Below are positions 22,946 through 52,815 of a DNA stretch of 64,000 bases, one piece after another (within the stretch, counting starts at the first letter, position 1; the number at the start of each line of letters is the position of its first letter). A model generated the notes under the pieces. That model made no database searches, was not told where the DNA came from, and saw only the letters and a list, made by a program, of their open reading frames with translations. The translations under genes were made by a program, and so were the position numbers. Origin of the DNA: Cyanophora paradoxa CCMP329 (lineage: Eukaryota; Plantae; Glaucophyta); contig QPMI01000655.1 in assembly GCA_004431415.1 (NCBI GenBank), positions 205,157 through 269,156 on the forward strand, written 5' to 3'.

Positions 22946-22950
22946 GTCCG

Positions 22951-22956
22951 TACCCC
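22951..22956 (+). repeat. Left target-site duplication TACCCC
   Basis: The same hexamer occurs directly after the right TIR (52757-52762). Confidence 0.9.
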
Positions 22957-23248
22957 ACACATAGGGATACCCCTGATCCAAGCCCTCCGGCCTTCGGCCT
23001 ACAGGCTTGGATCAGGGGTATCCCTATGTGTGCGCGTTTCAGGTACTAGGGTAGTAAGCATTTATTTCAGGTCTTAGGGTATTAATCATGTCTTTTTGGC
23101 ACCAGTATGTTGGCCGCCTCTGGGGTATTAGAAGCTTGGATTCGGCACCAATTAGGCAGGAGAGGCAGGAGGGTTATTTGTAAACTTTCCTATGGATTCC
23201 CCTCTTGTGTGGGATTTTACATATAACCCTCCTGCCTCTCCTGCCTCT
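22957..23248 (+). repeat. Left terminal inverted repeat (~292 bp) containing two hairpins
   Basis: Reverse complement of 52467-52756, with only a few differences in the loop of the inner hairpin. Confidence 0.95.
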
Positions 23249-23257
23249 ATCCATAAT

Positions 23258-23628
23258 TAAGACTGCCAACCATCTCTTCATTTCTTTACGTTTTCTCTTA
23301 AAGAGATATCTTGAATAGTCAGGGGATGGAAGGGGAATGGGAGTGTCTGGTAAAAGGGTGGTTTGAGGGATGGCAGGGGGATGGGATGGATGGCGGAGGG
23401 GATGGCAGGGGGATGGAGGGATGGCAGAGGGGATGGCAGGGGATGGGAAAATGTATGAAATTTGGTTGATTTGTGACGATATCTGGTCAGGGGATGGGAG
23501 GGGGATGGGACTCAGTCAGGGGATGGGACTTTTCTCAGAAAACAAATTTTGTTTTTGTTTTTTGAAATTTTCTATTCGAGTACAAGGGGATGGGTTTCCC
23601 ATCCCCTCATCCCCCCATCCTCCTCTCT
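23258..23628 (+). repeat. G-rich internal direct repeat, copy 1 (GGGGATGG array followed by CCATCCCC array)
   Basis: Aligns by eye with 31001-31355 (taagactgcc...aaagagatatcttgaatagtcagggg...gggacttttctcagaaaa...aggggatgggtttcccatcccc). Confidence 0.85.
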
Positions 23629-23630
23629 GC

Positions 23631-25018
23631 TCAAATCCTCCTCCTTGATCTCGTGGAAATTGCTGGAGCTTCATAGGTCTCCTTTGAATTCGAGAAATCT
23701 CTATACCACCTTACTGCCTCTGCTCCCCCTGCTAATCTCTCTGTTCCCGCCACCCTCAATCTCTCCAACTCTCTCCCTTGTTTCTTCTTCTTCCCTGCTC
23801 TGTCCTCCAATAATGGTTTATCTGGCACGTTTGGCGCCCTCTCAATCCCCTCTCTGGCCAAAAGTCGCTCTGTTCTGGCCTCTTTCTTTGCCTCTTCAAT
23901 GACATTTATTGATGGCGCCTCCAAGAACTCCACGGTTTCCACTTTCTGTAATTCGTAGTGGGCATAAAGTCGATCTATTAGTTTGCCAGAAATGTCCCTT
24001 AGTTTAAATTTGAACCCCTCCACTCCTTCTATTGTGAATATTTCGCGGCTCCAATTATTCCCTTGTTTGGCAAATGGGCTCTTCTCTATTTTAGTTCTCA
24101 CGTGGCTCCCTGCTGGATAGTCTTTTAGATATTCAATTGACTTCATGAATTTCTCGTTTTCTTTTCCGAGTATTAGAGGAACATGTACCTCTGTGGTCTC
24201 TGCTGGTTTCATCCCGTTGCTGAGTGGATGGTATTATTGTAGTTGTAGGCAAAATCTTGGAGCTTGTCGAAAAACTTTACAGTATTATTCGCTATACAAT
24301 ACGAGTTAATTAGCTTCTTTATTGTGCGATTAAAGGCTTCTATTCGGCCTTGGCTATTGTGATCTCCAACCTGCGAAACTTGGTGCTCAATCATCTGGGT
24401 TTCTAAATGGTCTTTAAATACCTTGTTCAGGAATTCGCTCCCAGCATCACTTTGTATCTTCACAATTGGACGAGGGACTTGTTGCTCAAGCTCCTTAAAT
24501 GCGTTCAATGTGCTTTCTGCTGTCTTTCCCCTCATGGGAATTATAAAGCCCAGTCTGGTGGTATTTTCTACAGCTGTGAGGAACGTGTTGTAGCCTTGAT
24601 TCTGTTTGCTGTACGAAGGATAAAAGATTAGGTCTATGGCATAGCAGTCGAGTGGCTGTCTTATTGGGATATAGGCAGTCTTCTTGGCAGATGGGAGGGG
24701 TTTATTTATCTGGTTGATTTCTTGGGCATCATAGAATCTACGGATTGTCTTTCTTGGCACATCTGGAAGCTCTTTGGCCAATGAAGCAAGGCCTTTAAAT
24801 CCTACCTTGGTGTCATAGAATGTCCTTGCTAAGGGATCCAAGTGAGGCACAGCAATGGCAGTTGGGATATCCGCAGGAACTAAAGCTTTGAGGTCACTCT
24901 TTTTCTGAATGCGACCCCTCTCTCCTCTTGAGGGATTGGGATTGGCAATATACTCACATCGTACTCTGTTTGTCTGCGTGTGATCTTTGATGACATCTAT
25001 ATTGGGATTAGAAAGCAA
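23631..25018 (-). CDS. Retroviral-type (rve) Maverick/Polinton integrase; one 1-nt indel near 24212
   Basis: DDE motifs YAIDL, QSDAGSEF, RIEAFNRTI; YNNTIHSATG|MKP is restored by adding one G; C-terminal VR..K..F.K...NWS.EIF.I...ELQKV typical of Maverick integrases. Confidence 0.9.
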
Positions 25019-28000
25019 TCTTTGACATCTTCACATTGAAGGTCTCATTTTCAAGCTTCTTTTGGACAGTCATTTCGATTTGCTTGGGTTTTTGGTGGAG
25101 CACATGGTCTTTATAATCTTGGAAAGACAGATCTGTTTGAATGGTCTCCTTACAAACACCTGCCAGCTTTTTGATTTCCTCATCATCTGTTTTAATGCTG
25201 TAGCATTTCGGCCTCACACCAGCATATTCAGTAATGGTTCTGCCCTCAAACTCATCTTTGAACTTGCCAAGCTCTGTGGGGTGGGTGTCAATGTCTTGTA
25301 GGTCTTTTGCTATAGTTTTCGAATTTATTTGAAGGCAAAGCGAATCTGTATCAGTAAAAAGCAGTTTACAGTCTGGCCATTTCCGCTTGATGGTGTTATA
25401 ATAATAATCAAATAGGCGCAGCTTGGCAAGATCTAAAACAACTGCCCCAATTGCTATGGGCTTATCTAACTTGACATCTTTTTGTAGCATTTCGAAGGCT
25501 ACTGCTGAATCGCTTAGTCTTGTTTCTGCTTTGAGTAGGGGCGATCTGGCGTATTTCATAAATTGCTTTTCGTTGGTGGCAATCTTGACATTAGACCTTC
25601 CTCTCACTTTCTCAATGGTTTTGCCAAAAAGGCTATTGTTCATGATCTTAAAGAAGTCCTTTTCGGGTTTGGAAGGGGCTGCTTTGCGGTTTTGGGCATT
25701 GGATTCGACGTAAGGCTTCATAAAGGCAGCCTGAGTAAATGTTAGCACCCTGTGGATTTTGGTGACCTTTAAGCCTTGCGCTACCATGAATTGGAGCAAA
25801 GGTTTCGACACCACATAATTACAAATGTCTTCGCAGGCTGCTTGTAGTCCATCCTCTGCTCTCTTGATAACAAGAGGTAGCTCTTTGTGGAGTTGATGGA
25901 GGTGCTGGGGATAATGGATGTCAACTTCTAAGATGGCCCCTCTGCTGATGACAGGTCGTAATTTGAGGGTTCTGGGTGCCATTGGAAATTCGAGAGGGGT
26001 AGCTTTTGGGATAGGGCATATCCATATAGGTTATTGGCATCCAAATATATAATGTGGCTGTCCCTTTCCTTTTTGGCATATTTATGATTCATAATCGAAA
26101 GGCCTCCCCTGATCATGCCTTCAACCATGTTGTACATATCAAGGTTGGAAAGAAGCTCGATTTTAGGCTTGGTAATAGATAGCATGCTGTCCACGAAAGC
26201 CCTGGACTTGAGACATAGAGGGCAGCATCCATCCCAAAAGTTTTGTGTGATTTCTGGCGGAAAAGCTGGAACTTTTCCATTAATCCTTCCACGTTCTGGA
26301 CGCCATAATCAATAAAGTTTTTGATGTCAATGAATTTAAAGCAACCCCAAGTGATCGACATGTAGTTGTCAAACGATTTTGCGAGGACTTCCACCCTTTT
26401 TTCGGGATTTAAGGCGACTGCCTTGAATATCTGCGTTCCAGATAGGGACAGATCATTGGTCACTATGGGAATCTTGGTGAGATTGCTGGTGCGTCTGTGG
26501 AGATTACATTTGCGACATGCTGTGCCTACAAAATCGCCAGTTTGGTGGTCGTGATCCCTCACTTTATAATTGTCTTGGGTGAAATCACCTTGGCAGATGT
26601 AGCAGGTTTTAGCAAGGTAATGGGTACGTTTCTGCTCTTTGGTCAGTGACATTGGGATGTTGGTAAATAGGGCTTTGAATAGCTCTGGGGCTGTGCTGTC
26701 GAGGGTACTCAGGAGCTCAAAGATGTTGGAGTGGGTTTTAGTGAGTACTACTCTATTATTATGAAGAGCTGTCAGTGAGATTGATTTGATCTTGAACATA
26801 CCAGAAATATCTGTTTCATAATCGAAATAGCAATAGGCAATCACGGGGAGGAATACAGTCTTTGAGAGATGTTTAAGACCAAATTCAATGAATGTGGGTT
26901 GTTTTGGGGTCTCTCCAGCACTTGTCTTCCAATCCACACAACGTTTGCTTTGAATGTGGGATTGAAGCTTCTCCTCAGTCTTGAAGTGGTTGGAACAGGT
27001 TTTACAGAAATGGAGTCGCTGCTTATCATTTTTAGCTAAGACTCTGGACATGCTGAATATTGTGGTATAATGACTGTTACCATTTTCGTCTGTAATAAGC
27101 AGCAGATCCACTTGGTGTTTCCTGTTCCTTGAGGAGCTGTTGTGGAGTAGATTAATTTCTTCTGTAGAGTTAGAGGGGTCGTAAATATTAACAGAGATTG
27201 CTGGATTGAGATTTTCAAAGAGATCAATAGTATCAGCATCTGCCTTTACAGGAAACTCAATGCCCTCGAAATTTAGTTCTTTTTTGAACCACCTCCTGTA
27301 TTGGGAAGTCTCATTGCGCTTGTGGCTATTTACTTCGTCCTTGTGAATATAAGAAAGGATAGCATACTCAAAGCATCTATTGTCCTTGTTATTAACATTG
27401 ACAATGGCTCGTTTATTTTTGAGCCACTCTGGGAGTGGGATAAAAGCACCTCCTGAGATGGGTTTAAAGGACAGAACAATCACTCTCAAAGCCTCAATGC
27501 TTTGGAGTTTATAGCTGTCTGTGACATTAATTTGCGACTGGCATTCCTTAGCCAATTTCGCAGTTTCTTTAGTGAGGGTTCGAGATCTTGTCATGATAGC
27601 ATAGGTGCTGTAAATGTGCTTGGTAATAAAGTCTCTCGAATTGTTTGCTTTTGAAAAGCGACAGACAAACGTAAAGCGAGTTTTAATCGACATCTGTGAA
27701 TTGATGGCATCTTGGAGCCTTGTGTGGAGTTCCTCAGAGTAGGTGTCTATAAACTCTTGAGTGGTCAGGATCTGGTGGTGAGCCCTGATGGTAAAATCAA
27801 TGTATTTATTATTAAGAGCACGATGTTCATTTATTAAGGTAGTGTATTCATCTCCTCTGACTTGAGTTGTGGTAGTTTGTTCGACTTGGATTTGGCCAAG
27901 GCGATCAGTCTCATCAAGGGTCTCGATTTTCCCTAATAGCTCTCGATTGAGAGCTTGAAGCCCCTTGAGCTTCTTGTTGGTCTGTTTAATATAAGATTCA

Positions 28001-28101
28001 TATTCACTTTCACTGATGGAGTGATTGGCCAGTAAGAACGCCAGATTCCCGAGAATCTTGTCCTGGAGCTCCTTAATTTGGTAGTGGCTGGGGCGGGGCA
28101 T
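25008..28101 (-). CDS. Protein-primed family B DNA polymerase (pPolB) with N-terminal OTU-like, C2H2 and EndoVII-like Zn domains; two 1-nt indels
   Basis: Motifs IRGG, YLDANNLYG, KIMNNSLFGK, FTDTDS, LGKFKDE, PKCYS; N-terminal FIPLPEWLKNKRAIVNVNNKDNRCFEYAI and CYIC..VRDHDHQTG...ACRKCN. Frames join by adding one G at ~26191 and at ~25938. Confidence 0.9.
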
Positions 28102-28540: not shown

Positions 28541-31003
28541 ATGACATCCACCATGTTCACCACCACCGAAATTACTTGTGCCCCCACTGAGGCAACTTTC
28601 AAGAAGCAGCTTCAAAACTTTGACAAGTCTGGCATCATCTCCATGAGCTGGGATGAGGCTAATTGTATCATTCAAAAAGGGAAGCACTGGGTCGAGCATT
28701 TAACCCCTGAACAGCTGACCAGGGTTTATTTGGACTTTGACAGGCTTGTCCCTCTCGAGAATGATGCTTCTATCAACCAAAAAGAAGCTGCTCAAGTTGT
28801 ATTGGATTTGCGCAAACGTCTTGCTGCCTTGTCAGGGGTTGACTTGGATAAAATTGCTGTTAGTGTGAGGCATCGAAGGGTAAAGCTTGTTGATTCAGGA
28901 GAGGTTAAATTCAAGCAATCTGCCCATTTTATTTGGGCAGATCTGGTTATGAAGCATGAAGATATCCCAAATCTACTTGATTCTTGGGGGCTGGTTAGAG
29001 GGGATGATTATGATCCTCAGCCATACAGTTCCACACAAAATATTGTCTGTATCTACAATTGTAAGGATACTGGGCTTGACAAAAGGACCAAAAAGCATGA
29101 TGTTGATATTGATGTGGTCTTCAAACCAGCAATGTACTGCCTTCAAGGAGTCCCCTATAAACACTACTTTGTCCAGTTCTATGAAGCTGGGGCGCAGCTA
29201 CTTCAAATTCAGGAGGGGGGCAAGGCTGTTCCATTCAAGGCTCCTATAGTGGCATCAAACCCCACCTTATCTGGCTTTGACATTCTTAGAAAGGCTGTTA
29301 TGGGGTTGGATGGAAAACGCGCTGATGATAGAAAGGCATGGGTCAATGTTGGCTATGCCATCTGTAATGTTAGCAAAGACATGGAAATCCCAAAGAAACA
29401 GGCCAGAGAACTGTGGCATGACTTCAGCTCTAAATGCTTGGACAAGTATGATGAAGATGGGGCTGACAAAGATTTTGAGAGCATCTGGAACAGCAAGAGA
29501 AAGGGGAGCAAAATCACAATGGGTTCACTCAGGACCTGGCTGAAGCAGGATAATCCAGAACTTTACAAGGTCATGTTTTCAGCACCCCAAGTATCAGGAT
29601 TCTTATTCTTGGATGATGAGGAGGGGGAAGAAAATGGAAAGGTCAACTACAAACTGGATCCAATCCCAGCAAGGGATATATATGAGGTACAAAAACGATA
29701 CTTGGATGCCAGGTGTATCCATTGTACTGATAAAAAGTGTGTGTTTATGTGGAATGACAAAGAAAAATCTTGGGTTCCCCATGACATTGAAAAAGTGAAG
29801 AAAGGTACTTTCCCACACATCCAGTATGATGCTGGGGATGGTAAATATAAGAGTACCTTCAAGAAGTGGATAGAGGATGGAGATAGTACCAGATATGAGT
29901 TTGTGGAGTTCCTTCCACCTCCTGCCAAGCTCCCATGTAAAACAGCCAGTGTCTTCAACCTCTATCAGGGAATGGCAATCGATTATGCTCCATGTGGTGA
30001 TATTCCTGATGTGATCACTGATGAGATGATCAGCCCTTTCCTGAAACATTTGAGTTTAATGTGTGGGGAGAATGAGAAAGCTACAGAGTATGCCTTGAAA
30101 TGGTTTGCTCATATGCTCCAGAGGCCTGGGGAAAAGATTGGGGTTGCCTTGGTTTTCATGGGTGTCCAAGGCACAGGAAAAAATACACTGCTGGACATTT
30201 TTGAGAAAAAGGTGTTGGGCAACAAATTGGCCTTCTCCACATGTGATGGAGAGAATGACCTATTTTCCAGATTCTCACACAACAAAGAGCATAAAATTAT
30301 GGTGACATTGAATGAGGCCAAAGCAAAGGATAACTATGAGTACAGCGAAAAGCTTAAGGATTATATAACAAATGATAAGATCACCATTGAACACAAAGGC
30401 ATTGACAGCTACACAAGCCCCAATTGTGTCCACTTCGTTTTCACAACAAATAGTAATATCCCTGTGAAGGTGGAGTCTGGAGATAGGCGATTTGCCTTCT
30501 TTGAAAGCAGCACAAAACACCAAAGAGATGCTGAGTACTTCAAGCCACTTCATGCTTGGCTTGACAATACTGACAACATCCACATGATTGTCAGGTTCCT
30601 GAAACACGTGGACATCAGCAATGTGGATTGGGATAAAGAGAGGCCATTGAGTGCCAAATATTTCCTTGCTCAACAGGCAACACTTTCACCTATTGAATAC
30701 TTTGCCTACTGGCTAACAGCCAATGGAAAGGTCACCAAGGAGAAATGTAAGACACAAAATCTGATCAGTGCTTGGACTTGGTGGGCAGAGTTTCAGGAGA
30801 AGGCCAAATTCAAGTGTGAGATGAATCAAAAGAAGTTCTATATTGAGATGAGGAATACAGCCTTTATTGAGGTGAAAAAGTGCCAAGGCATCAATTACTA
30901 TCATTTCAAATGGGAGGATATGATGTCTGCCTTCAAGAAATGTAAGCTGGAAGATGATGATAGCATCAAAGAGGAAGAGAATATTCTGATTCAAGATGAT
31001 TAA
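28541..31003 (+). CDS. AEP primase-polymerase + PriCT-2 + D5-like SF3 helicase (820 aa)
   Basis: RVYLDFD, SAHFIW, YDPQPY (AEP); WVNVGYAI..LWHDFSSK..KYD..ITMGSLRTWLKQDNPE (PriCT-2); GVQGTGKN, LNEA, FTTN, DRRF (SF3). Confidence 0.92.
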   Translation: MTSTMFTTTEITCAPTEATFKKQLQNFDKSGIISMSWDEANCIIQKGKHWVEHLTPEQLTRVYLDFDRLVPLENDASINQKEAAQVVLDLRKRLAALSGVDLDKIAVSVRHRRVKLVDSGEVKFKQSAHFIWADLVMKHEDIPNLLDSWGLVRGDDYDPQPYSSTQNIVCIYNCKDTGLDKRTKKHDVDIDVVFKPAMYCLQGVPYKHYFVQFYEAGAQLLQIQEGGKAVPFKAPIVASNPTLSGFDILRKAVMGLDGKRADDRKAWVNVGYAICNVSKDMEIPKKQARELWHDFSSKCLDKYDEDGADKDFESIWNSKRKGSKITMGSLRTWLKQDNPELYKVMFSAPQVSGFLFLDDEEGEENGKVNYKLDPIPARDIYEVQKRYLDARCIHCTDKKCVFMWNDKEKSWVPHDIEKVKKGTFPHIQYDAGDGKYKSTFKKWIEDGDSTRYEFVEFLPPPAKLPCKTASVFNLYQGMAIDYAPCGDIPDVITDEMISPFLKHLSLMCGENEKATEYALKWFAHMLQRPGEKIGVALVFMGVQGTGKNTLLDIFEKKVLGNKLAFSTCDGENDLFSRFSHNKEHKIMVTLNEAKAKDNYEYSEKLKDYITNDKITIEHKGIDSYTSPNCVHFVFTTNSNIPVKVESGDRRFAFFESSTKHQRDAEYFKPLHAWLDNTDNIHMIVRFLKHVDISNVDWDKERPLSAKYFLAQQATLSPIEYFAYWLTANGKVTKEKCKTQNLISAWTWWAEFQEKAKFKCEMNQKKFYIEMRNTAFIEVKKCQGINYYHFKWEDMMSAFKKCKLEDDDSIKEEENILIQDD

Positions 31004-31355
31004 GACTGCCCTCCTTCTACTCATTTTTTCCATTTATCTATAAAAGAGATATCTTGAATAGTCAGGGGGATGGAAGGGGGATGGGACTGTCTGGTAAGGA
31101 GTGGTTTGAGGGGATGGGTAGGGGGATGGGAGGGGATGGGAGGGGGATGGGTAGGGGGATGGGAAAAAAGGAAGGAGGTGGCTGATTTGTGACCATAGCC
31201 AGTCAGGGGGATGGGTAGGGGGATGGGAGTCAGTCAGGGGGATGGGACTTTTCTCAGAAAAATAATTTTGTTTTTGTTTTTTGAAATTTTCTAATCGAGT
31301 TCAAGGGGATGGGTTTCCCATCCCCCCATCCCCCTATCCCCCCATCCCCCTCTCT
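31001..31355 (+). repeat. G-rich internal direct repeat, copy 2
   Basis: Begins at the helicase stop codon; same anchors as 23258-23628. Confidence 0.85.
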
Positions 31356-31384
31356 CCATCCCTACCACTTGGAAGAGGAGGAGG

Positions 31385-31760
31385 ATTAGGGGGCTCATGA
31401 TAGGCCTGGGGGGGGTTTGGGGGGGTTTCCAGAAGTTTGGGGGGGGATCTGGGGGGGGATCGTTTTTTACTTTCTGGTTGTTTTATGACCAGAAATGGTA
31501 ATAATGTATACATGTGGGGGGGTTAGGGGGGTTAGGGGGGGATATATAACTCCTATAGCCTCCAAATCTTTTCATTTTTAAGCAACAAGCCAGAAATATA
31601 TAGAGTTGTGAGAGAATACCCCCCTACCCACTCCACAACCCCCTAATCCCCCCCTAAACCCCACCTTCCAGACTGAGAATGGTAACCTAAACAACAAGAC
31701 GTCAGTTGGCAGAAACCCCCCCTAACTTCTCCTTGAGTCCCCTAACCCCCCCAAAATCCA
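31385..31760. repeat. Telomere-like TTAGGGGG.. array facing an inverted CCCCCTAA array
   Basis: ggggggttaggggggttaggggggg at ~31516-31541; ccccctaa variants at ~31640-31750. Confidence 0.6.
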
Positions 31761-31841
31761 CCCCACTTGCTTGTAGGCCACCAGCACTTAAGGACATCTT
31801 CATATAGCATGGTGAAGAGCCCAAGCCCCAAGTGCCCACCA

Positions 31842-31849
31842 AAAATTGA
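31842..31849 (+). promoter_or_regulatory. Second AAAATTGA motif
   Basis: Exact octamer ~54 nt upstream of ATG 31903. Confidence 0.35.
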
Positions 31850-31902
31850 TTCTTGACACCCCCAACCCCCAAACAGTCTTACATAAGCCCACCAGTACCA
31901 CC

Positions 31903-32136
31903 ATGGACTCAGATAGCAGCTATGATGACATCCCCTTGAGGACATGGTTGAACTGTGGGAGGCAGTCAGGCAGCAGTATTATGATGAGTATAGGAAGTCC
32001 CCCAAGACATCAACCCCAGAAAAGTAAAGAATTGCGCAGATTGATGGAGGCATATGAGAACATCATATGTGATAACTATGGCATGGAGGGGTATGCCCTA
32101 CTCCACAAAGCAAATTTTAGCTGGAGAAAGTCATGA
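31903..32136 (+). CDS. Small hypothetical protein (possibly frameshifted)
   Basis: accaccATGG start, upstream AAAATTGA, element-like base composition; no recognisable motif. Confidence 0.3.
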   Translation: MDSDSSYDDIPLRTWLNCGRQSGSSIMMSIGSPPRHQPQKSKELRRLMEAYENIICDNYGMEGYALLHKANFSWRKS

Positions 32137-32293
32137 AAATTGTAAGTACCCCATCTTAAAATCACCGATTCACTCCTTGCCGCTATCACCGTTGGATTCC
32201 TCGTACAAAGTAGATATTTATAGACTCCAACATCATAGCCTTACGATGATCTGGTGACGAGCTACGAATATTTTCAGTTTCGCATATACCAAA

Positions 32294-32447
32294 TGTATAT
32301 ACCATAATGATATATGTATATGATATATTATGATGTCACATGACATATATATATAACATAGCTTTCCGGACTCGCCGCGTCATGGCGATCACGGCGCTAT
32401 AGTTTTTACCAAAACTTGTTTTTTTTTCATATATATCATATACATAT
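32294..32447 (+). repeat. 154-bp AT-rich foldback unit, copy 1
   Basis: Near-identical to 33917-34069; perfect 17-bp internal inverted repeat (32312-32328 / 32431-32447). Confidence 0.9.
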
Positions 32448-32457
32448 GTACGTTCGC

Positions 32458-32604
32458 GCGTACTGAGCCACGGTACGCACAGGGGCCTGCGTACTGCGCT
32501 ACGGTACGCACAGTGGCTTGCGTACTGCGCTACGGTACGCACAGTGGCTTGCGTACTGCGCTACGGTACGCACAGTGGCCTGCGTACCAGCTAAAGTACG
32601 CACA
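32458..32604 (+). repeat. 31-bp tandem repeat, ~5 copies (gcgtactgcgctacggtacgcacagtggctt)
   Basis: Period 31 read directly; each unit carries a tgcgtac...gtacgca dyad. Confidence 0.9.
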
Positions 32605-33916
32605 TTAAATCTTATAAGACCATATAAGATTTTGAAAAAGAACAAGATCCGTGCTCCTGCGGAGCACTAAGTACGGCGAAGCCTCGCGGACGCCCTCGCG
32701 GTTGTCACAGTAGGCCTATAGGGCACTCAGCGACTGGCCAGCGGCCTGGCCGATCGCGAACAGGTTTCTGGCTGGAAGCTGGCTGGCTGACGGCCAGTCC
32801 AGCTACCGCTGGCCGGCTAGAGGAATATAACTAGAGGAATATTAATGTACTGAGGAAATAAAGGGAGGCCGGAGCAGGTTGAGATTAGAGGAGATGAATT
32901 ATATATAATATTGTTGAGAGGGAGGCCCGGGAGGGGCAAGGTTCTCGCGGCCAGGCGCATGCACAGAGCTTGCGAATCGCTTAAACAGAATCTTGAATGC
33001 ATATAGCTATAGCATCGATGTGCGGGGCTGCGGAGCTCGAGGCGAGGGCGCGCGGAAAGATGTGCAGGTCCATGCAGGATCGAATTTTCGGGGTCGGCTG
33101 GGTCCTCGCGGCCCGTCGCATACGCAAAGCGTGCGGAAGACTTTGCCTACATCTTAAATGCTTATGCTATCGTTCCGCGCATGCGCCGCGGCGTGGGCGC
33201 GCGGAAAGATGTCAGGGCGCGTGCAGGATCGAATTTTGGCCGTCGGGTACCTTCCTGCGCTGTTCCGGCTCCGAAAAGCGGATTTCGGGGTGCGCAGGCC
33301 CTGCTATGTCCATGCGCGCCAGTACGCATCGATTGCGCGCGTCGCGGGACCGGGCGGGACCGGCTAGCGCTGGATCAAATTTTCGGCCGACTCTTCGCAC
33401 TGGAGCGTCGACGGCGCTTGAAATCGAGCTTGCGGCGATGCGCTCGCCCTCGCGCGGCATTCTGTATCGTTCTGGGGCGTCCCTGGCGCGATTTCGTCGC
33501 GGGACCGGGCGGGACCGGGTCCCACCTTCTGACTCGGACTGCATTTGTCGGAGGTTAAGTACCGGAATTGATCCAGAGGGAAATTCGATTTTCGCGCGAC
33601 GCCCACGGGCGAGCGGTCGTCTTAGGGGAGCCACGACGCTAAAAATGGATCTAGAGAGGTCTGTGGGGGTTAGGGTAGCTGAGTCATTAGCGGCAATCGC
33701 GTCCGTGTCGAGGCAGAATTAATAATTCGTCCTCGAGGGAGTGCGACGCGGAAATTATTTAGCAGGGGGGATCTTGAGTGGAAAAAAAGGTTAAAAAAGG
33801 AATTTATATCGGCGGTTTTTGGGTTTGAGAAAGAGGCTTCGCCTGATTCTTATAAAGACCATATAAGATATAAGACAACTCTTATAAGACCTTATATGAC
33901 TTAAATTTGAGCGACT

Positions 33917-41265: not shown

Positions 41266-42810
41266 ACGCACCTGTAAAATCGACTCTCATTGTGGGAGCA
41301 TTCACATAGACAAGGGGATAAATGCGAACATACTTGATTCTCAAAGAGAACCCTACGTAGAAAGCATCCTTGATGGTGAGAGGGTAACCATTTAATAAAG
41401 CTATATCGCCGGAATTATTAGCATTGTTTATATTCTCACAAACAAATGTTTTGTTCTGCCCTTCTGCTCGAATAAAAGACCAGTTGACCCCATTAGTTGA
41501 TGTAGCCACACTGAAAGTCTTTATAAAAGCATTGGTGTCCCTGACCCATAGGCAACCACTGAAGAGAGTTCAAAAGTGTATGGGAAAGCAACTTGAAGGT
41601 ACTCAGTGGGGGTCTCCCATATCTGCTCTGGAGCAAATGCCCCAGCTTCCCAGCCAAATGATGAAGGTCGAGCCATGTGGGGCTCTTTACCTATCACAGA
41701 GGAGGAGGCAGTAAAGGCATCATCAGCAAGTTTGTACCAATTAGCATCCAAAGGTGGTGACAGGGTGAGAGTGGAAGAGATGTATGCTTTTGATGGGTTC
41801 TTTAATTCATAGTTTGCTACCAGCAAATCGCAAAGCTTATTAATCATGCTGTTGTTTGCTGCTATGTATGTCTCGGTGAACGAAAGCATGTCAGGGATTT
41901 TAGAGGTATCATCAAGGGACCTGACTATGTGATTTGGAAGAGGAACAGATAGCCTATAGTACCTTCCATAATCCTGATCGTAGTTATAAGGTAGCAACTC
42001 CTCCATCTTGTCAAGAGCCGACAGCTCACTTGCTGCCATGAGCATGTTAATCAATGGGCTTCCATCTGTTGAGGCAATCCATGAGAGAATGCCCCAACTG
42101 TTCACAGTCTCATAAGCATAGCCGAAATAATCAGACTCTAAATATGGGTCTACCTCACCACAAGAGATGCTTATAACTATAATGTCATCATCATCACTGT
42201 AAATCTTCCTCGCATGGCTATAGCCACACACGCTGGGGTTATTGTTTCCTGAGATAGCACCATCAATAAGGCAAGCAGTTATCCCATGATTGAAGTCAAC
42301 TATACTCACAGGTGAAAAGTAGGTGGGAGCAGCAGAGGTAGCCCTTGCTGCTATTTTACAGGGCAGAAAGTTGTAGTTGTTATCGTTTGTGATGAATATA
42401 GGTTTCATGTACTGAGTATCAAACGAAGTAATAACAATGTCCTTCAAGGAATCTTGAATGAGGGATTCGCCAGTAACAGAATTGATTGCGCTTTCTAAAG
42501 GAGCCACATCATACTTGGTGTTAAAAAGGGCATTTTCGATTATATTTCGAGGATTTGCGAAAATCAAGGGCAGCTGAGTGAGGTATATATTATGTAAATC
42601 ATTGGCTGTGAGTTTGGGTTCGCCTGCCCTATCTGGATGCCTAATGTTCAACCCAATGGCAATGATCCCACCTGTGGAAGTTCCACTAACAAGATCCACA
42701 AGATCTATTATACGCCTGCCAGTTCGATTTTCGATTTCTTTAAGCAGTCTGGTAATGATAATGCCCCTTGCTCCGCCTCCTGACAATGCTAAAACGACCT
42801 TGAGAGGCAT
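41255..42810 (-). CDS. Patatin-like phospholipase fused to a C-terminal F5/8 type C (discoidin) domain; one 1-nt indel near 41540
   Basis: GGGARG, GTSTG, ATSAAPTYF, IDGA. Adding one G gives YLQVAF..YGSGDTNAFIKTFSVATSTNGVNW..KYVRIYP..MRVDF (discoidin pattern). Confidence 0.85.
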
Positions 42811-42853: not shown

Positions 42854-45800
42854 ATGAGCTTTAATTACCCCCCTAATCTGGAAACAATTCAAGATGATAA
42901 TTCCAGCAGCACAAAGCATGTGAACTTTGATAATATAAAAGTTAAAGGTTCAATATCAATCGACCACAGCTCTGACGGTTCTTCAAAGACTCAATCAAGG
43001 GAGCATGCCCTTTCCTTAAATCAGACCGATCCAGACAAGGAGGATGTCAGTATAGCTTTTAGTTTGGGCAATGTGAAAGCCAACCAAGTAGCAGAGATCA
43101 AGGCAACCAGAAAGAGACCCAGAAAACTTAAACCAAGTGGAACCCATCCAGACATACCATCAAGGTGTGATAGTGGCCGTTTGATTTTCAATGTACAAGA
43201 TGAGCAGGGCAAACAGAACACGGGTTTAAGAATTTATAATGAGGGCAGCACCACAAAAACAGAGGTTCCCCAAGTATTACAAGTGGGCCATTTCCAGAAC
43301 ACGAATCAAGTCTGTTCAACTAATGATGTATACCCCAAGGATATTACATATGACTTTGCGAGGAATGAGCCGTTTGGGTTTTTTACTCCAAATGATGTCC
43401 ACCAGAAAAAGCCATCAATTACCATCAACAGCAGCCCCACTCAACCAGTGGCAATCCATTTACACCCTGATCTTGTCGAAATGGATAGGCACCTTTTACC
43501 ATTGGTCACAAACACCAAAGACCTTGGAATCAGGACGAGGCAGTGGCGAAATATCCATGGAAGCAATGTGTATGCCAATGGTGAAAAGCTTGTCAGTGAG
43601 AAAACTTTAAGGGAAATCTTTGAGCATTACGGTCCTGTTCCTGTCCCCTTTCCGCTTCCGTGGGATCCACCTGACCTTACACCAAAGAAGCAACCAGGGA
43701 GGGAATACACAGCAGAGGAAAATGTAGCCTTTGGGCAGCACATAGTTAGCTGGGAAAAAGTCAGAAACAAACCAGTATTTACAGATTACAAACAACCAGC
43801 TGAGGAGCTTTTATCACCAGATGTAAATGTAATACCTCTTGAAGATAGGAGATTTGAAGACGATAATGTCTTACCAGATGGCTTTGACCCAAATCTTGTG
43901 ACTTATGATCGCTACGAGCCTTTTCATGAGCAGCTTTTACCTGATGGTTTTGCGCCTGATCTGTTCGATTTTATCATTAATTGGGAAGATATTCGAAACA
44001 AACCTGAAACATATCCACCAGATCCCCATGGTCATGATTGGGACGAAATCGAAAATAAACCTGATAGATTTCCACCAGAAGATCACAGACATGATTGGGA
44101 AGAGATTGATAATAAACCTGACAGATTTCCACCAGAGGATCACAGACATGATTGGGGTGACATTGACGGAATACCAGAACAGTTCCCACCAGAAGATCAT
44201 AGGCATAATTGGGACGAAATAGATGAACAACCCACATTCGCATCAGCAGGCAATATGTTGACAGACTTTCCACTTGGTGTAAGTCTCTATCAAAATATTG
44301 AGATTGAAGAAAGATTACAATTAAATGACTACTATGTGAATCGTAGGGGATTAGATGCTGGAACCACAATGGAAGGCGAATTGTATATCAGACCCCCAAC
44401 AAGAGTTAATTTAGTGGCAGCTGGTGGAGGTGTTGAAATAAAAGACACCAAACCCGGTATCTATCTAACAAGTTACTACCCAGATGACATCCCAATGACA
44501 GCAACATTTCCACCTATACCATCTCTTCCAGCTGATCCAATTAATTTTGTAGACAAAGATGCCACCCTTCAAATTAACGTAACTGATGTTAGCGCTTTTG
44601 ATGGATCAAGACCAAAGTTAATATTTAGTCGAGAACGTCTCTTACCTGATGATTTAATTGGAGATCGAGATGATTATAAACAGTGTGAGGTAGCTTGGAT
44701 TAAAACAAATTATAATGGTGGAGTGGGGGAGGGTGTCTTAGAGATCAATCAAAGGGCATCAGCCAAAAACATACACAACGAAACTATATCGAGAATTGTC
44801 ACAGAGGATTATTTAGAAAATAAGAACTACATAGATGGAACAGAACTCTCAACTATACTCAATGATTATGTAACAGAAACTGAATATGCCACAACACTGG
44901 CAGCAGCATTAATACCCTATGTTACAGAGACTGAGCTTGATGCTGAACTCGCTAAATATTTACCACTGACAGGTGGCACCATTACAGGTGATCTTACAGT
45001 CAATAGAGAATTGGAGGTAAAGGATAAGATTGTTATAGGGAACAATGAGATTTCAAGAGCACCTTTAAACTTCTTAAATTTCGATGTTGGGGGTTTGTCT
45101 CATTGCCTTCTAAGATTTAATGCGAGTTTGGATGATGCTTGGGAAAATAATGTACTGGTCTATGAGCTTGTTAATAAAGCAAATGCTAATGTTATTCAAA
45201 AACTGATACAGTCAGGAAGTGTAGTATTCAAGAGTTCAGGAGGTCCTAATAACAAACCCTTCTATGATGTAGCAGACACAAATAGCTTCTCTACTTTCCG
45301 TTATTCCTTCACTTCTACAAATTCAGCAGGCTATGAAACCATCGATTTCAGTGGAGGGATAACTGTCGCATTTGTGATTAAGTTAAGAAGCGCTGAACCG
45401 CTTGAACCTATTTTACAGTTTGATGGGTCTTCTACACTTGGTAGTAATGGGCAAATTTGGAGTATTTCCAAAGGTCAATGGGGTGATGGTTTCGTTTTGA
45501 ACATCAGCAAATTAGACCAATCTACTTTCAGGGTTCCACTCACAATTGACGAAGTAGATTCTTGGACAATCTATGACATCACAATCACAAGCACATTCGT
45601 AAAAGTGGGTGTTAATGCGAAAGAGAGACAGACCTTTTCGATTACAAATGGTTCTCATCTGCCCCGAAATGATGTAAAGTATGTATATTTGGGAAGTCAA
45701 TACTCAAAATTTGACCTGTGCGAATTCTATTGTTTCACAAGAGCCTTAACAGCTGCTGAGCTATATAATTTACGATGGTATCTTCATCAATTCTACGGAT

Positions 45801-48800
45801 TTGTGGAAGACCCTTCAAACCCAATACCAAGAGATGATAATAAACTACTCATCAAGACTCAGGAACTACAAGTAACAGGGATGAACTTAGCAACCACCAA
45901 TGGTGTAGCAGCATTACTTACAGAATTCACAACCTCGAATGTAGTAGACGGATGGTTAAATAAATACACCACTTCTAATGTTGTGGAGGGTTGGATAGCA
46001 GATTCAGAAGCGTTGTTAGAGAACTACTTACCATTAACAGGTGGAACAATCACAGGAAATCTTAACGTGAGCAATCAAGGAAACACTGACAGCAAACTCA
46101 AAATATATGAGAACACTTTCAAATTGGATTATTTGGATGTCTCGACGTTTAATGTCCTTTCAGTTCTTAATGTTTTCGTTTGGGTCAGAGCAAGGGACAA
46201 CATGAAAGATGGAACGATAGTGAGTGGACTTGGAAACGGAGCAGGAGACGTTTGGTTTGATAATAACCCTGAGACACCGAATTTTCTTCTTGGGTTTGGT
46301 AATGTTGCTGGGAACTCGACGCAAATTAAGAATAATGGAGGTCCTAACAACAAACCTTATTTTAATTCGTATCCTACCATTAACTTCAACTTTTCAGCCT
46401 ATAATACGTGGGGGGCTGAGTGTGAACTTTTCATGAGCCAAACTTCACAGCAACATTTAACTGTGTTTTTCGTCGCGAAATTCACAGATACAGCACCTCC
46501 AAATGTAGAGAACGTTTTATCTTTGAGATATGGAACCACAAATTGGAGCATCAATAAATGGAACAATGGTGCGACTTGTTATATTCAGGTTTCTAATGGG
46601 GTTGGAGCAGCAGGATTAGGTGAAAGCACTTCACCAAGTAACGCAAAAGCAGAAATTACATACTCCGAAATGACGACATGGACACTCTACGAAGTAACAG
46701 TCTCTCCTTCCACTGTTACATTTGGGATCAATGGTAGCAATAGAAGTGTTGCAAATGTTACAAACATGTTCCCCAATAACCTTGTTACTGAAAGTCGTAT
46801 TGGCTCTTCAACCTCCAAACAAGATTTAGCAGAGCTAATAGTGATTATTAAACCAACAACAGAAATCGTCAAAAATAACGTGCGAAGTTATCTCCTTCAA
46901 AAATACGGTTATCCTGAGCCATTAGACAATCCTTTCTCCAGTGACCCTAACAAACTTCTTCTACAAACAAACAGCCTGAGAGTTACAGGAAGTCTTATAG
47001 CCAACAACCTCCAATATACAGCACCAGCACCAGGAGGTGGTTTTATTATCAAAGATTTCCAAACAAGTTCAAGCCTTCAAGAGGCAGAAATAACTGCCAT
47101 CAATGCCCAGATTACACAGATACAAGAAAGCATAGACAGTATCAATACCAATATAGAACCTTTAACCACTTCCAATGTAGTTCACGAATGGGTAGCTCCA
47201 CTGACTGCTTCCAATGTAGTTCAGGAATGGATAGCCCCATTGACTGCTTCCAATGTAGTTCACGAATGGGTAGCTCCACTGACTGCTTCCAATGTAGTTC
47301 AGGAATGGATAGCCCATTGACTGCTTCCAATGTAGTTCAAGAGTGGATAGCCCCACTGACTGCTTCCAATGTAGTTCAGGAATGGATAGCCCCATTGACT
47401 GCTTCCAATGTAGTTCACGAATGGGTAGCTCCACTGACTGCTTCCAATGTAGTTCAGGAATGGATAGCCCATTGACTGCTTCCAATGTAGTTCAAGAGTG
47501 GATAGCCCCACTGACTGCTTCCAATATAGTTCAAGAGTGGTTAGTTCCCAAGGCTGATACAGAAACCGTAAATTCCCAAATAGCCCTGCTGACGTCTTCC
47601 AACACAGTTCAGGGCTGGTTAATCCCAAGGCTGATACAGCAGCTGTAAATTCCCAAATAGCCCTGCTGACATCCTCCAACACAGTTCAAGCTTGGTTAGC
47701 CCCAAAGGCTGAGACTGCCTTTGTTAACTCCCAAATAGCCCTGTTGACCTCTTCCAACACAGTTCAGGGCTGGTTAGCTCCCAAGGCTGATACGGCTACA
47801 GTCAATACCCAAATATCTCCACTCACATCCTCAAATATAGTTCAGAGCTGGTTGAGTGACTATTTGCCCAAATCAGGAGGGACTATCACATCCAATCTTT
47901 CTGTTTCGGGCAGCCTTTACACAAATAACATAAGAAGTGGTAGCCAATCCATAGACTTGGTTCTAATCCAAAACTTGATACCTCCCCTGGAACGCCTTTC
48001 AGCATACACAAATCCACTGTCTACACCAAACTGTGTATTCCACTGGTATCCTTTAAATGAGCCATCAGGCACAGCAATACCAGAACTTACCAATAGGGCA
48101 TCTGGGCAACCCAATGCTTTGCCTTCTTGGCTAAAAGTGTCAACTGGGGCCTTCGTGCTGAGTGCCTCTTTAATCAATGGGAATAAACTATTTGGGGTTA
48201 CAGGGGTAACAACCTATTTGGCGCAACCAAGTCCCTACATAGCAAACCCATTCAGCAATGGGATGACAATGTTCTCTGTGAGAAGGAACTATTCAACCTC
48301 TGCCAGTCCTTCAGCTCATCTAAACATTTACAGTGACCCTACATCAAGTAGAAATATAAGATTCGGAACCACAGGAGAAACATCTATTGGAATAACGAGT
48401 TATCAAACAAATGGAGTGTATCAAGCAACTTCCACAGCATCCACAGCCACGAGCTTTTACAACAATTGGACTTTGTTTGACTATCATGTCACTTCAACCG
48501 TAACCACAGTAGGCATCAATAGTGTTGATTTATCCCCCACATTATCTGGCAACTACAATTTAAGTGAAGTGGCAAATCTCACAATCCAAAAGATTGGGAT
48601 AGAAAGCTTCCAAGGACAAATGGCAGAAATAATCATTTACAATCGGGCTCTATCAGCTGATGAGAAGGGCTTTATCCGCTACTATCTATCACAAAAGTAT
48701 GGTCTGAGCAACCCAATTCCCCAAATCAGCCCAGCCTACTCCTCAAATGAGTTCCTACAGGTGTCCACCCCCAATCTTATACTTAATAAGCTGACTGTGA

Positions 48801-50251
48801 ATAGCAATGTAGCCTTGCCAAATATCCCCACATCAAACACTGTTCAAAACTGGCTTCAACCTTACACCACTTCAAATGTCGTTCAAGCATTGATAGCTGA
48901 AAAAATTAATCCACAACTTGTTACTTCAAATGTTACAAGGGACTGGCTCAGCAGCTATCTGCCCCGAACGGGAGGTACAATAACATCAAACCTTGTAGTT
49001 TCAAGCAACCTTTACACTCCTTCAATCATAAATGGTGACCAGTCCATCAAGTTCTATCCAATTTCTACATCGCCACCAATTGACCAGCTCCTTTCATATA
49101 CTAATCCACTTTTCACATCCAATTGTGTGTTCCACTGGTACCCAAATTCAACTGATGTCAATGGCTCGTTGTTAGAAACAATGGTCAACAGAGCAGAAGG
49201 GCTCCCACTTGCCTTACCAAACATGAGCCCTGGGTTCACTTTATCCAAGAACTCAATAAGCAGTGGGACAGCATTGAATGGAAATAAATACATGGTCAGC
49301 ACAAGTAGTTCTTCTGGATATCGGCATCAGTACACCACAGCATTATCAAACATTTTTGCCAGTGGCATGACTGTATTTTCAGTGAGAAAGCACACTGCCA
49401 CAGGTAACCAATCACATTTTGTAGTTACCAATGATGACACAAGTGACCCTACATACGGGAGATATATCACACTGGGAGCAGTTAATGGAAATTCCCTTGG
49501 TATTATCACTTCCACATTAACACAAGTCTCAACAACAAGCTTCTTGAATTCTTGGGGGTTGTTCGACTTTCAATTAACCCCTACAACACTAACTATGGGG
49601 TTGAATGGCGCAGATGTATCTCCCTCAATTACTGGAAGCTTCCTGTGGTCAAACACGCCAACCATAAAAATAAAGGAACTCTCATTCACTTCCTATGTAG
49701 GAGAGATAGCCGAAGTTGTAATTTTTAATCGGGCTTTATCTCCAACTGAAAAGAGTTTCATGAGATATTACTTTAAGCTCAAATTTGGGCTTGACTTTCC
49801 ATACACTTATCCCGAAACATACACTCAGCTCTCAGCAAATCTTTTGGTAGACAAGCTCAGTGTGAACACCAATGTTTACGCAAGGTCTTTCTATGAGGTG
49901 GCCACTGGAACTACAAATAGTCTAAGTAAAATCCTGACATGGAATGAAATCAGGCAAAGATTTCTATCTGGGACTTTCCAGATGAGTATAGGACCCCTCA
50001 ACGCCAATAGCCGTGGAGAAGCCACTTATATTTTAAATTGGAACCCAGCATTCAACACGAAACCACCTGTCATTAGTTTAGTAATGGAAGGAACCCCTGT
50101 GACAACCCAAGCGCTTGGCTATAAGTTTGGATTATCGAATTCAAGTTCTACCTCGTCCACAGTTCATGTTACCTTGCTAACTGATGCGACTGCTACAGCA
50201 AATACGACATATACCTTCACAATTCACTGGACAGCATATGGAATTCCGTGA
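42854..50251 (+). CDS. Giant fibre/adhesin protein (~2460 aa; frameshifts in the repeat region 47.3-47.7 kb)
   Basis: ORFs 42854-47320 and 47744-50251 are joined by TSN repeats; HxHDWxEIxxKPxxFPP repeats, four YLPxxGGTIT motifs, four LamG-like domains ending in an EIIIYNRALS..YL..KYG-type motif. Confidence 0.8.
43979..44235 (+). repeat. Coding 57-bp repeat (DWDEIENKPDRFPPEDHRH), ~4.5 copies
   Basis: Seen in DNA and in translation. Confidence 0.85.
47159..47855 (+). repeat. Coding tandem repeats: ten 39-bp units (PLTASNVVQEWIA) then ~four 78-bp units (PKADT..VNSQIALLTSSNTVQGWL)
   Basis: Read directly; two 39-bp units lack one C. Confidence 0.9.
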
Positions 50252-50290
50252 TGAAGCTTTATTTTTCTATCCTTCTTAATAAAAGAAGTA

Positions 50291-51136
50291 ATGGGCGAAT
50301 ATAATCGAGTCCAATTACCAGTTTACGCATTGGGGAGTCCAGCAATTCATTTTAGACAACATGAAGTGTCTGATGAAGTTCGTGGAATGGAATCAACAGA
50401 ACGGGCAAATTCAGGTAATGCTTTTGACAAGAATAGTATGATTCGTGTAAAAGAACTGAGAGCTGATAAAAATTCGGGAGTGGTGAAAACAACTCAACTA
50501 CTTGTAACAAATGCGAATTTTCAATCAGCAAATGGACAACCTGATGCGTATGGTGTAGATATCAAAGCATTTGAATTTGACAATACAAGGGCTGCTGCTG
50601 TTATAAGATCAGGAGGAGCAATAATTGGTGGTGGCTGTAGAGTATCGGGAATGCTTGGCTCTTCTGCTGCCTTTAATGATTTTCCGGACACTTTACCTGA
50701 ACATGCTGATAATCCCCAAAGAATTCGCATGTTTCTTCCATGCGGGGATTCCCCGTATGCTTTTGGTATCATTAGAGCTAATGTAAATACGCAAAATGCC
50801 ACTCAACCCCAAGGTATTGCCGGACCATGGAAATTGGCTAATCAGCTTCTACCAAAGGCAATGTATTCTATATGTCGCTCTCAGAATGGAGGATTAGAAG
50901 GTTATACTTTCTTTGTTCAAGCAGTAGGCCATGGTGGGCGTGGATGGATCACAAGAAATCCTGCTACACAACCAAACAGTTTCGATTTTTGGGCATCAGA
51001 GGTAGGGGGTTATGATATTTTAATTTTTGGATATCGTAATGATGAAGCAGCATGGGCTGTTGCCAACTGTATAAATCCTGATTCGCAAGTATCGAATTTC
51101 TATAATGAACCATTCCCAAATGATCCCATTCCGTAA
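50291..51136 (+). CDS. Hypothetical virion/fibre-associated protein A (281 aa)
   Basis: Paralog of 51156-52001: ESTE, ELR.DKN.GVVKTT.LLVTNANF, RSGGA.IG.G.RV.G. Confidence 0.75.
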   Translation: MGEYNRVQLPVYALGSPAIHFRQHEVSDEVRGMESTERANSGNAFDKNSMIRVKELRADKNSGVVKTTQLLVTNANFQSANGQPDAYGVDIKAFEFDNTRAAAVIRSGGAIIGGGCRVSGMLGSSAAFNDFPDTLPEHADNPQRIRMFLPCGDSPYAFGIIRANVNTQNATQPQGIAGPWKLANQLLPKAMYSICRSQNGGLEGYTFFVQAVGHGGRGWITRNPATQPNSFDFWASEVGGYDILIFGYRNDEAAWAVANCINPDSQVSNFYNEPFPNDPIP

Positions 51137-51155
51137 TTATGTTTCAGTATATTAA

Positions 51156-52001
51156 ATGGCAGCACCAGCACCACCAGAGCGCATTTTAACAGCGCAACTA
51201 TCATTAGCTGCTCCAGCTAACCACGTCTTACAGCATGCTATTATTGATAATATTGATGGTCTCGAATCCACAGAGATAGCCCCAACCCTAAATACTTTTG
51301 GGGACACTCACATGCTAAGACTAAGAGAATTGAGATGTGACAAAAATAATGGGGTCGTTAAAACTACTAAACTTCTTGTAACAAATGCGAATTTCAACGC
51401 ATTTCATGGGGATCCTGATAGTTACAATGATGATAACAAGGTAACCAATTTTGCCTACGAAGCAAGAAGGGGAGCAATTAAATGTAGGTCAGGAGGTGCC
51501 TATATTGGAGATGGTTTAAGGGTTGGTGGAATTATTGGAGCGCCTTTATTAGTAAATGATCAACCCAATCCAGATGATGTGAATACAAGAATCAGGACAT
51601 ATGTCCCGGGAATGAATGAGCCTTACATTATCAAAATCAACACAATCATTATCAACCTTCAGACTGCTGTCATTGATGTTATAGAGCCTTTGGGAAATCA
51701 CTATAGATATACTGAGACGTTGCCTGCTGATATTTACGCATTATGTAGAAGAACAGATGGAGCAAGACCCCGAATTACTGTCCAAGTAGTCCCAGTAGAT
51801 AATTTCGGACTTGCTTTCCATTCACTGCCACTTCTTGACACACAAGATGACCAATATATTATAAGAGCTACCCAGCAAGGGGCTTACACAGTGATTATGT
51901 ATGCTGAAAGGAATGATGAAATTGCCAGAGGAAATAGATTTGGTCAATATCTAACCACAAATTTATACAATCCCATTGGAGGAAGTGATCCTTTGCCTTA
52001 A
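51156..52001 (+). CDS. Hypothetical virion/fibre-associated protein B (281 aa)
   Basis: Tandem paralog of 50291-51136. Confidence 0.75.
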   Translation: MAAPAPPERILTAQLSLAAPANHVLQHAIIDNIDGLESTEIAPTLNTFGDTHMLRLRELRCDKNNGVVKTTKLLVTNANFNAFHGDPDSYNDDNKVTNFAYEARRGAIKCRSGGAYIGDGLRVGGIIGAPLLVNDQPNPDDVNTRIRTYVPGMNEPYIIKINTIIINLQTAVIDVIEPLGNHYRYTETLPADIYALCRRTDGARPRITVQVVPVDNFGLAFHSLPLLDTQDDQYIIRATQQGAYTVIMYAERNDEIARGNRFGQYLTTNLYNPIGGSDPLP

Positions 52002-52046
52002 ATCTCCAGCAATCTTATTGTTTTTTCTATTCTATTGGTAATCAAA

Positions 52047-52445
52047 ATGCTTGCCAAAGGTTACCATGTGATGCTTGATTTCCAATTCAGCCAACCAATT
52101 AGAGACCATGTGGAGCTCTCTAAATGGCTCATGAATGTCAGTGAAGACATCATCAAGAAATATGGAATACAGGTTGTCCACAAACATGCTGAGATTTTTG
52201 ATGGCACCAAATCACCCCCTGGATTTGCCCAAGTATTATTATTAGATGAAAGCCATTGCTCTGCTCATTGCTACAGTGATCAAGGCATGTTGGCAATAGA
52301 TATATTCAGCTGTGGAAAACAGGCAGAAAGGAATACAAGTTTAATTGCTTTTGAGCTGGAGGAGGAGATAAACAAATATGCTGTTGGATTTGGGGCAGTA
52401 ATTAAAAAGAGATTACACCATGAGAAGAGGAGATTTGAGGTTTAA
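52047..52445 (+). CDS. speD: Prokaryotic-type pyruvoyl S-adenosylmethionine decarboxylase proenzyme
   Basis: GYHVMLDF..., PPGFAQVLLLDESHCSAHCY..GMLAIDIFSCG, with the E|SH self-cleavage site and terminal CG motif. Confidence 0.85.
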   Translation: MLAKGYHVMLDFQFSQPIRDHVELSKWLMNVSEDIIKKYGIQVVHKHAEIFDGTKSPPGFAQVLLLDESHCSAHCYSDQGMLAIDIFSCGKQAERNTSLIAFELEEEINKYAVGFGAVIKKRLHHEKRRFEV

Positions 52446-52466
52446 GAGAGGGGCAGGAGAGGCAAG

Positions 52467-52756
52467 AGAGGCAGGAGAGGCAGGAGGGTTATATGTAAAA
52501 TCCCACACAAGAGGGGATTCCTTAGAAGTTTACAAATAACCCTCCTGCCTCTCCTGCCTAATTGGTGCCGAATCCAAGCTTCTAATACCCCAGAGGCGGC
52601 CAACATACTGGTGCCAAAAAGACATGATTAATACCCTAAGACCTGAAATAAATGCTTACTACCCTAGTACCTGAAACGCGCACACATAGGGATACCCCTG
52701 ATCCAAGCCTGTAGGCCGAAGGCCGGAGGGCTTGGATCAGGGGTATCCCTATGTGT
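52467..52756 (-). repeat. Right terminal inverted repeat (~290 bp)
   Basis: Reverse complement of 22957-23248; termini 5'-ACAC...GTGT-3'. Confidence 0.95.
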
Positions 52757-52762
52757 TACCCC
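52757..52762 (+). repeat. Right target-site duplication TACCCC
   Basis: ...ccctatgtgt|tacccc; matches 22951-22956. Confidence 0.9.
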
Positions 52763-52815
52763 CCTCGCTGTCGATGCCCCTGTTTCGTTAACGCACTGAT
52801 CACCCCTCTCTCTAG

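Follow-up and report, generated by a model that had tools for sequence, protein, structure and literature searches.

The window analysed here is a 64,000-nt stretch of contig QPMI01000655.1 of the glaucophyte Cyanophora paradoxa CCMP329 (assembly GCA_004431415.1, forward-strand positions 205,157 to 269,156), and all coordinates count from its first letter. It contains a gene for a channel resembling polycystin-2 (PKD2/TRPP-like), one intron of which is occupied by a low-GC element of 29,800 nt (22957-52756; 42.9% GC, against 72.6% and 74.2% in the two flanks) with the features of an integrated Polinton-like virus. Transcript contigs join the host exon upstream of the element to a site inside the element's left terminal inverted repeat (TIR). 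We consider it very probable that this Polinton-like provirus, lying 11 nt 3' of the host donor, diverts splicing to an AG in its TIR, that the protein would end 14 codons further on, and that the gene is likely knocked out.

The channel gene and its interrupted intron

The exon chain of the channel gene was modelled under the constraint of offsets in transcript contigs. The resulting stop-free model (Table 1) reproduces residues 86-552 of the public C. paradoxa model P0002 identically, one 55-residue exon being 100% identical to P0002, and goes on, by way of two micro-exons, as far as residue 620 (22945). P0002 itself ends after residue 560 by running into an intron, and it omits both the micro-exons and the last exons; the micro-exons (22364-22370, 7 nt, and 22470-22477, 8 nt) are backed by the letters between joints in a contig of transcript run X17. 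Among the 23 modelled host introns is one GC-AG intron of 48 nt, in the interval 19950-20045.

P0002 scores 30.5 bits against PF08016 (PKD_channel; cut-off 22.4), matches the polycystin domain PF20519 weakly and below its cut-off (E 0.045), and finds its best PDB matches in polycystin-2 and PKD2L1. These likenesses ally the gene with the TRPP/PKD2 channels, from which it is nevertheless very divergent (E about 2e-5 for the PDB matches); a search for relatives of P0002 returned P0002 itself only. We classify it as a very divergent PKD2/TRPP-like channel gene, with channel activity predicted. A hydrophobic segment, residues 607-625, straddles the interrupted intron, the join falling at residue 620/621. 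We take this segment to be the S6 helix, as it is the last hydrophobic one and its position agrees with TRPP topology.

The element is bordered by two identical TACCCC hexamers, an agreement expected at random with a probability of about 0.0006, and beyond them by the two remnants of the host intron. Removing the element and one hexamer restores a 64-nt, phase-0 GT-AG intron across which ...YMLVNL joins FLGIVYWYY in frame. A preliminary description of the locus had placed a provirus inside one intron of one gene, with donor, branch-like site and acceptor intact and the next exon in frame, and the coordinates, the identical duplication and the reconstruction bear this out; the duplication and the in-frame reconstruction also rule out that the flanks are two different genes. 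With the element in place the intron measures 29,870 nt, 467-fold more than the reconstructed 64 nt and in line with the more than 400-fold enlargement given there. Its figure of about 60 nt for host introns was too low: the 23 modelled introns of the channel gene range from 48 to 143 nt (median 75), and the mean for C. paradoxa is 86 bp (PMC6704402). With 54.5% of the modelled gene span consisting of introns, landing in one is ordinary and requires no targeting bias.

In each of fourteen DNA runs a share of 0.96-0.97 of the words of the flank is present; five of these runs carry a flag as possible sources, and two of the other nine, X6 and X8 (two studies), were examined. Each yields one unbranched contig that runs from 21768 through the duplication to 22982 at flank-like depth; the contig crossing 22956 has a depth of 31.9 against 28.2 for the flank in one of these runs, and of 56.5 against 48-54 in the other. 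No empty allele was seen in the contigs of X6 and X8, which, as contigs, drop rare variants. K-mer spectra favour haploidy of C. paradoxa (PMC6704402), and the organism is probably haploid. One might suppose that not all cells or strains carry the insertion, an empty allele supplying intact channel mRNA, such that splicing into the element is real and the gene is not lost. The check covers two of the 14 runs, and the element-to-flank depth, a rough value and not a copy number, varies (about 22-36x in X8, 13-17x in X6), as it might if the family differs between cultures. However, neither X6 nor X8 branches at 22956, where the crossing contig keeps flank-like depth, and we regard this supposition as highly improbable.

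Splicing of the host transcript into the left TIR

We compared four transcript runs (X15-X18, presumed to be RNA) as assembled contigs; X19-X24, with a share of at most 0.14, were left out. Fifteen of 43 contig joints are listed, many of them poly-C noise, and at least seven host exon blocks are directly visible in spliced contigs. A contig of X15 spans at least six exon blocks and one of X17 at least seven, from two studies, both skipping the host introns; these contigs are thus mRNA-derived, and the gene is transcribed and spliced upstream of the element.

In X15 and X16 a further contig each (558 and 1557 nt long, respectively) tracks the TIR as far as 52709, the counterpart of 23004 at the left end; the next 30 letters of both are 22915-22944 in reverse complement, without a mismatch. 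In these two of the four runs (two samples of study P15), the host donor at 22945 is joined to 23005. The 59 nt so removed fall within the 48-143-nt range of the gene's own introns, and the acceptor is the first AG at least 48 nt from the donor, earlier AGs standing at 19 and 37 nt. The X16 contig is a single unbranched record whose length would, on the exon model, reach back to about 19,800; in X15 the contig with the junction has a depth of 5.4 and the upstream mRNA contig one of 7.7. Past the junction the contigs continue to 23153 (X16) and 23323 (X15). The former end lies just before the second TIR hairpin, and the X15 contig ends at the G-rich start of a repeated cassette (23253-23623). 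The X17 mRNA contig stops, by position count, one letter past 22945; that letter, itself unread, would be G in trapped or retained forms and T in the normal join, and such an end is consistent with a fork between trapped and retained forms.

This new intron, with its element-borne AG, had been missed in the preliminary description, which proposed that pairing of the TIRs brings the original splice sites together and makes a 30-kb intron tolerable. The X15 and X16 contigs show the donor spliced into the left TIR instead, and so contain the transcripts running into the element that the description had itself named as speaking against its proposal. Its fallback, an allele cut within the last helix, fared better: a stop is predicted 14 codons past the 22945-23005 join.

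The 29.9-kb intron might still be removed often enough, perhaps through TIR pairing, to keep the channel functional, with the trapped form a side product. The original splice signals are in place, the 231-nt perfect TIR could pair, and the contigs leave room for a minor, correctly spliced isoform. Yet in the unbranched X15 and X16 contigs the host donor is paired with the acceptor in the TIR, each TIR end would fold into its own 28-29-bp hairpin long before its partner is transcribed, and the largest modelled intron of the gene is 143 nt; we judge such tolerance very unlikely. Among the contig ends listed, no loose end lies before 52816 as a trace of a 22945-52816 join. The downstream exons (52816-53724) are matched by no contig in the four runs, and we do not use this as evidence.

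The junction between exon and TIR could also be thought an artefact of reverse transcription or assembly at the strong terminal hairpin. The left TIR has a predicted fold of -72.2 kcal/mol (z -9.3), and the junction ends at the border of loop and 3' arm of this -72 kcal/mol hairpin with a GG microhomology, at low depth and in a single study. The junction begins, however, precisely at the GT donor that the reconstructed empty intron had independently indicated, and this donor lies 10 nt ahead of the base of the hairpin; its end is a CAG that gives an intron of normal length in two samples; and a skipped hairpin would be expected to lose the entire stem. We hold an artefact to be extremely unlikely.

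Several points weigh against trapping and gene loss as we describe them. Depth is only 4-8, and the evidence consists of assembled contigs, which lose rare forms. The junction occurs in two of four runs, both of study P15; X17 lacks it, and X18 has no contig matching the region. X17 further contains an unspliced TIR contig over 22969-23135, from retention here or from another copy. Distally, the X15 contig departs from the left end at six positions (23193-23290), as could happen on crossing into a different copy or in a variant strain, and its end need not be the 3' end of the transcript. The branch-like site of the new intron lies inside a very stable predicted hairpin and, at 32 nt from the AG, is farther from it than most host examples (15-28 nt). 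Upstream splicing is irregular: the choice of acceptor varies near 22538-22552, and the intron at 22371-22469 is found retained. PKD2 homology of the downstream exon is not demonstrable on so short a piece: searches with eight short-exon pieces gave one weak PKD_channel match (E 0.1) and none for the two junction exons. Finally, the DNA contigs extend 26 letters past the junction, less than the 31-letter bridge standard, and cover the left junction only.

As to the irregular site at 22538-22552, one exon there has up to three candidate acceptors; the X17 contig uses a frame-shifting one, and positions in X15 fit another that lies 12 nt 5' of the modelled acceptor and keeps the frame.

Origin of the acceptor and consequences of the insertion

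A YAG at an intron-compatible distance is available at 93% of 8,458 element positions, at 61% within 80 nt and at 10% with a CTRAY motif upstream; the same motif occurs in 11 of the 23 host introns. With 93% of positions offering a suitable YAG, the acceptor need not be adaptive, and it is probably fortuitous rather than selected; the same count leaves the idea of a designed feature unsupported. That the TIR bears a conserved, selected 3' splice site seems to us unlikely. Were it true, the identical ends would let every intronic insertion of the family, whichever way round, trap the host transcript, and RNA from the host promoter would be directed into the element, at the left end in antisense to the integrase. 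In that case the family would amount to an in-built agent of insertional mutagenesis and a switch that silences itself, and the alga kept in the laboratory would be a ready-made library of trapped genes. At the right TIR end (52743-52756), GTs stand 61, 63 and 73 nt before the host acceptor; in principle, splicing from the element to the downstream exon would be possible as well.

We propose that the element was inserted by its rve integrase, and recently, given that its TIR ends are identical. A short-intron spliceosome would match the host donor to the first YAG lying an allowed distance away, probably before the 3' arm of the hairpin is made, and the trapped form would be the main isoform. 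Translation would stop in the new terminal exon, giving a truncated and presumably non-functional protein in which the last helix breaks off after its first part and the C-terminal tail is absent; in a haploid organism no intact allele would remain. A host donor spliced into the TIR with an early stop, together with probable haploidy, makes a knockout likely.

Endogenous Polinton-like viruses are abundant in protists, yet what they cost their hosts has mostly been deduced from annotation. At this locus the transcripts themselves indicate that, in a genome of short introns, an element landing in an intron is not silent: its end becomes the last exon. From this we also predict that cultures of the model glaucophyte are naturally null for a PKD2-like channel, a point relevant to work on its flagellar signalling.

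Element anatomy and relation to known systems

The two TIRs agree perfectly over 231 nt, and their alignment can be carried on to about 290 nt with two mismatches and a 2-nt gap. Each holds two hairpins, mirrored at the right end: a terminal perfect stem of 28-29 bp (22956-23032) with a small inner stem-loop, and a second with a 31-bp stem (23154-23246). The start of the TIR has no match in viral and metagenome contigs.

Table 1. Coordinates of host and element features in the window
Feature	Position	Strand	Remarks
PKD2/TRPP-like channel gene	19417-22945	+	24 modelled exons 5' of the insertion; further 5' exons upstream according to public model P0002
Last exon before the insertion	22898-22945	+	first part of last transmembrane helix; donor GT at 22946
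New trap intron, 59 nt	22946-23004	+	host donor, duplication and first 48 nt of TIR; GT...CAG; CTGAT 32 nt from end
Host intron 5' remnant	22946-22950		GTCCG; upstream exon ends at 22945
Left target-site duplication	22951-22956		TACCCC
Left TIR	22957-23248		
Start of TIR-derived terminal exon	23005-23049	+	14 codons, then stop (23047-23049)
rve-type integrase	23631-25000	-	about 455 aa, read through two breaks with X; PF00665 E 0.003 (below cut-off); PHROG transposase 1.6e-9; 5' limit approximate
Protein-primed family-B DNA polymerase (pPolB)	25008-28101	-	1031 aa, read through two breaks with X; PF03175 E 0.0011; PHROG DNA polymerase 3.4e-11
Primase-helicase	28541-31003	+	PriCT-2 and DUF5906 (Pfam)
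A32-type packaging ATPase	35969-36751	-	PF04665 E 4.6e-13, 49.6 bits (cut-off 22.8)
Homing-endonuclease-like gene	36812-37759	-	phrog_559 E 1.4e-73
Major capsid protein (MCP)	37866-39236	-	456 aa; 58% identical over full length to P0001
Candidate minor capsid protein	40330-41265	+	311 aa; a guess from size and position; no Pfam or PHROG match
Patatin-like lipase	41521-42810	-	PF01734 E 1.2e-19
Two fibre-like genes	42854-50251	+	LamG-like domains and 39-nt tandem array
S-adenosylmethionine decarboxylase (AdoMetDC)	52047-52445	+	PF02675 E 9.7e-12
Right TIR	52467-52756		
Right target-site duplication	52757-52762		TACCCC
Host intron 3' remnant	52763-52815	+	branch-like CTGAT 20 nt before end and TAG acceptor, both intact
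Predicted next exon	52816-52899	+	would complete last transmembrane helix; in-frame join; GT donor at 52900
Predicted last coding exon	53585-53724	+	open frame after CAG

The N-terminal part of the polymerase is an EndoVII/zinc-finger region (PF02945), and the motif patterns of such polymerases occur in order in the protein encoded at 25008-28101. The capsid open reading frame (ORF) has no direct Pfam, PHROG or PDB match; two relatives were found among 1.84 billion representatives, and none in viral contigs. An adenovirus-like maturation protease is a core gene of canonical Polinton/Maverick elements. No protease turned up in a Pfam scan of 23 ORFs or a PHROG scan of 12, which a very divergent one could escape, and we do not class the element as a canonical Polinton/Maverick.

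In the window sequence the integrase and polymerase genes carry two breaks apiece, every one of them in a C run, and 11 of 11 element indels sit in G/C runs. At the four breaks the short-read contigs of X6 and X8 are one letter longer, three at full depth and the one at 26190 at 60-72%. The breaks are probably assembly errors, though short-read contigs pool all copies; the confinement of the indels to G/C runs and the longer reading in X6 and X8 lead us to reject a decayed element. In long-read assemblies, homopolymer error can thus make such elements look decayed.

Other parts of the element are less readily named. Two adjacent 281-aa ORFs (50291-52001) have visibly similar N-terminal halves and no family match, and are likely a tandem paralog pair. 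A G-rich cassette of about 350 nt occurs twice as a direct repeat (23253-23623 and 30996-31342; 70-93%), at the 3' ends of the integrase and helicase genes, and is a possible terminator. About 3 kb (31350-34400) are without convincing genes and may be an origin or a captured insert; within them a 133-nt direct repeat (32294 and 33917; 96%) flanks a GC-richer stretch of 1.6 kb, and there is a 31-nt tandem array. Elsewhere in the window, a host gene with PAS-like and adenylate/guanylate cyclase regions is duplicated in inverted, tail-to-tail arrangement (5,997-11,340 and 12,446-17,820), the copies being mostly 94-99% identical in their longest blocks.

Integrated Polinton-like viruses have TIRs of hundreds of bp and lengths of 14-40 kb (PMC12220804). 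The element has TIRs of 231 to about 290 nt, a length of 29.8 kb, an rve integrase with a 6-bp duplication (5-6 bp being expected), an A32 ATPase and replication genes, and the expected double jelly-roll MCP is recognised through homology to P0001, itself an MCP with an HHpred probability of 98.5 (PMC10120064, Table S2). P0001, 58% identical to the element's capsid, is listed among endogenous Polinton-like viruses of the same host; a second listed C. paradoxa MCP is, by eye, near-identical to the capsid at the N-terminus, and 366 capsid matches are recorded in this species (PMC10120064, Table S1). In glaucophyte elements, Table S6 of PMC12220804 counts A32 in 139, rve in 85, pPolB in 49, lipase in 89, AdoMetDC in 66 and protease in 0, by our hand count of the columns and out of an inferred total of apparently 156. 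Ours has this same gene set, including the lack of a detected protease. Its genes mark the element as a Polinton-like virus, and the family to which it belongs has already been catalogued in C. paradoxa. The effect of an insertion on the host transcript, observed here for the Cyanophora element, is not treated in the parts of PMC10120064 and PMC12220804 available to us.

Interruption of genes by related elements has been predicted before, and splicing into transposon ends is known. The EMALEs of Cafeteria, mavirus-like virophages, share rve integration, low GC, TIRs and target duplications with the Cyanophora element (PMC8547959), and 15 of their integration sites lie in predicted host genes (13 in exons, two in introns), with disruption proposed. 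They differ in having their own virophage-type core genes, including a protease, where none was detected in ours, and in that gene disruption is predicted from annotation, whereas the transcript outcome is observed here. In the titles and abstracts of the literature, mostly open-access, we found no report of a host transcript spliced into a Polinton-like TIR. Exonization of maize Ds1 (PMC5395267) likewise has an inserted element provide a splice acceptor and enter the host transcript, and in engineered splice-acceptor gene traps the insert likewise supplies the acceptor. Unlike these, the Cyanophora insert is a 30-kb, apparently intact, capsid-encoding DNA virus, whose acceptor lies in a TIR hairpin and whose new intron mimics the short-intron size of its host.

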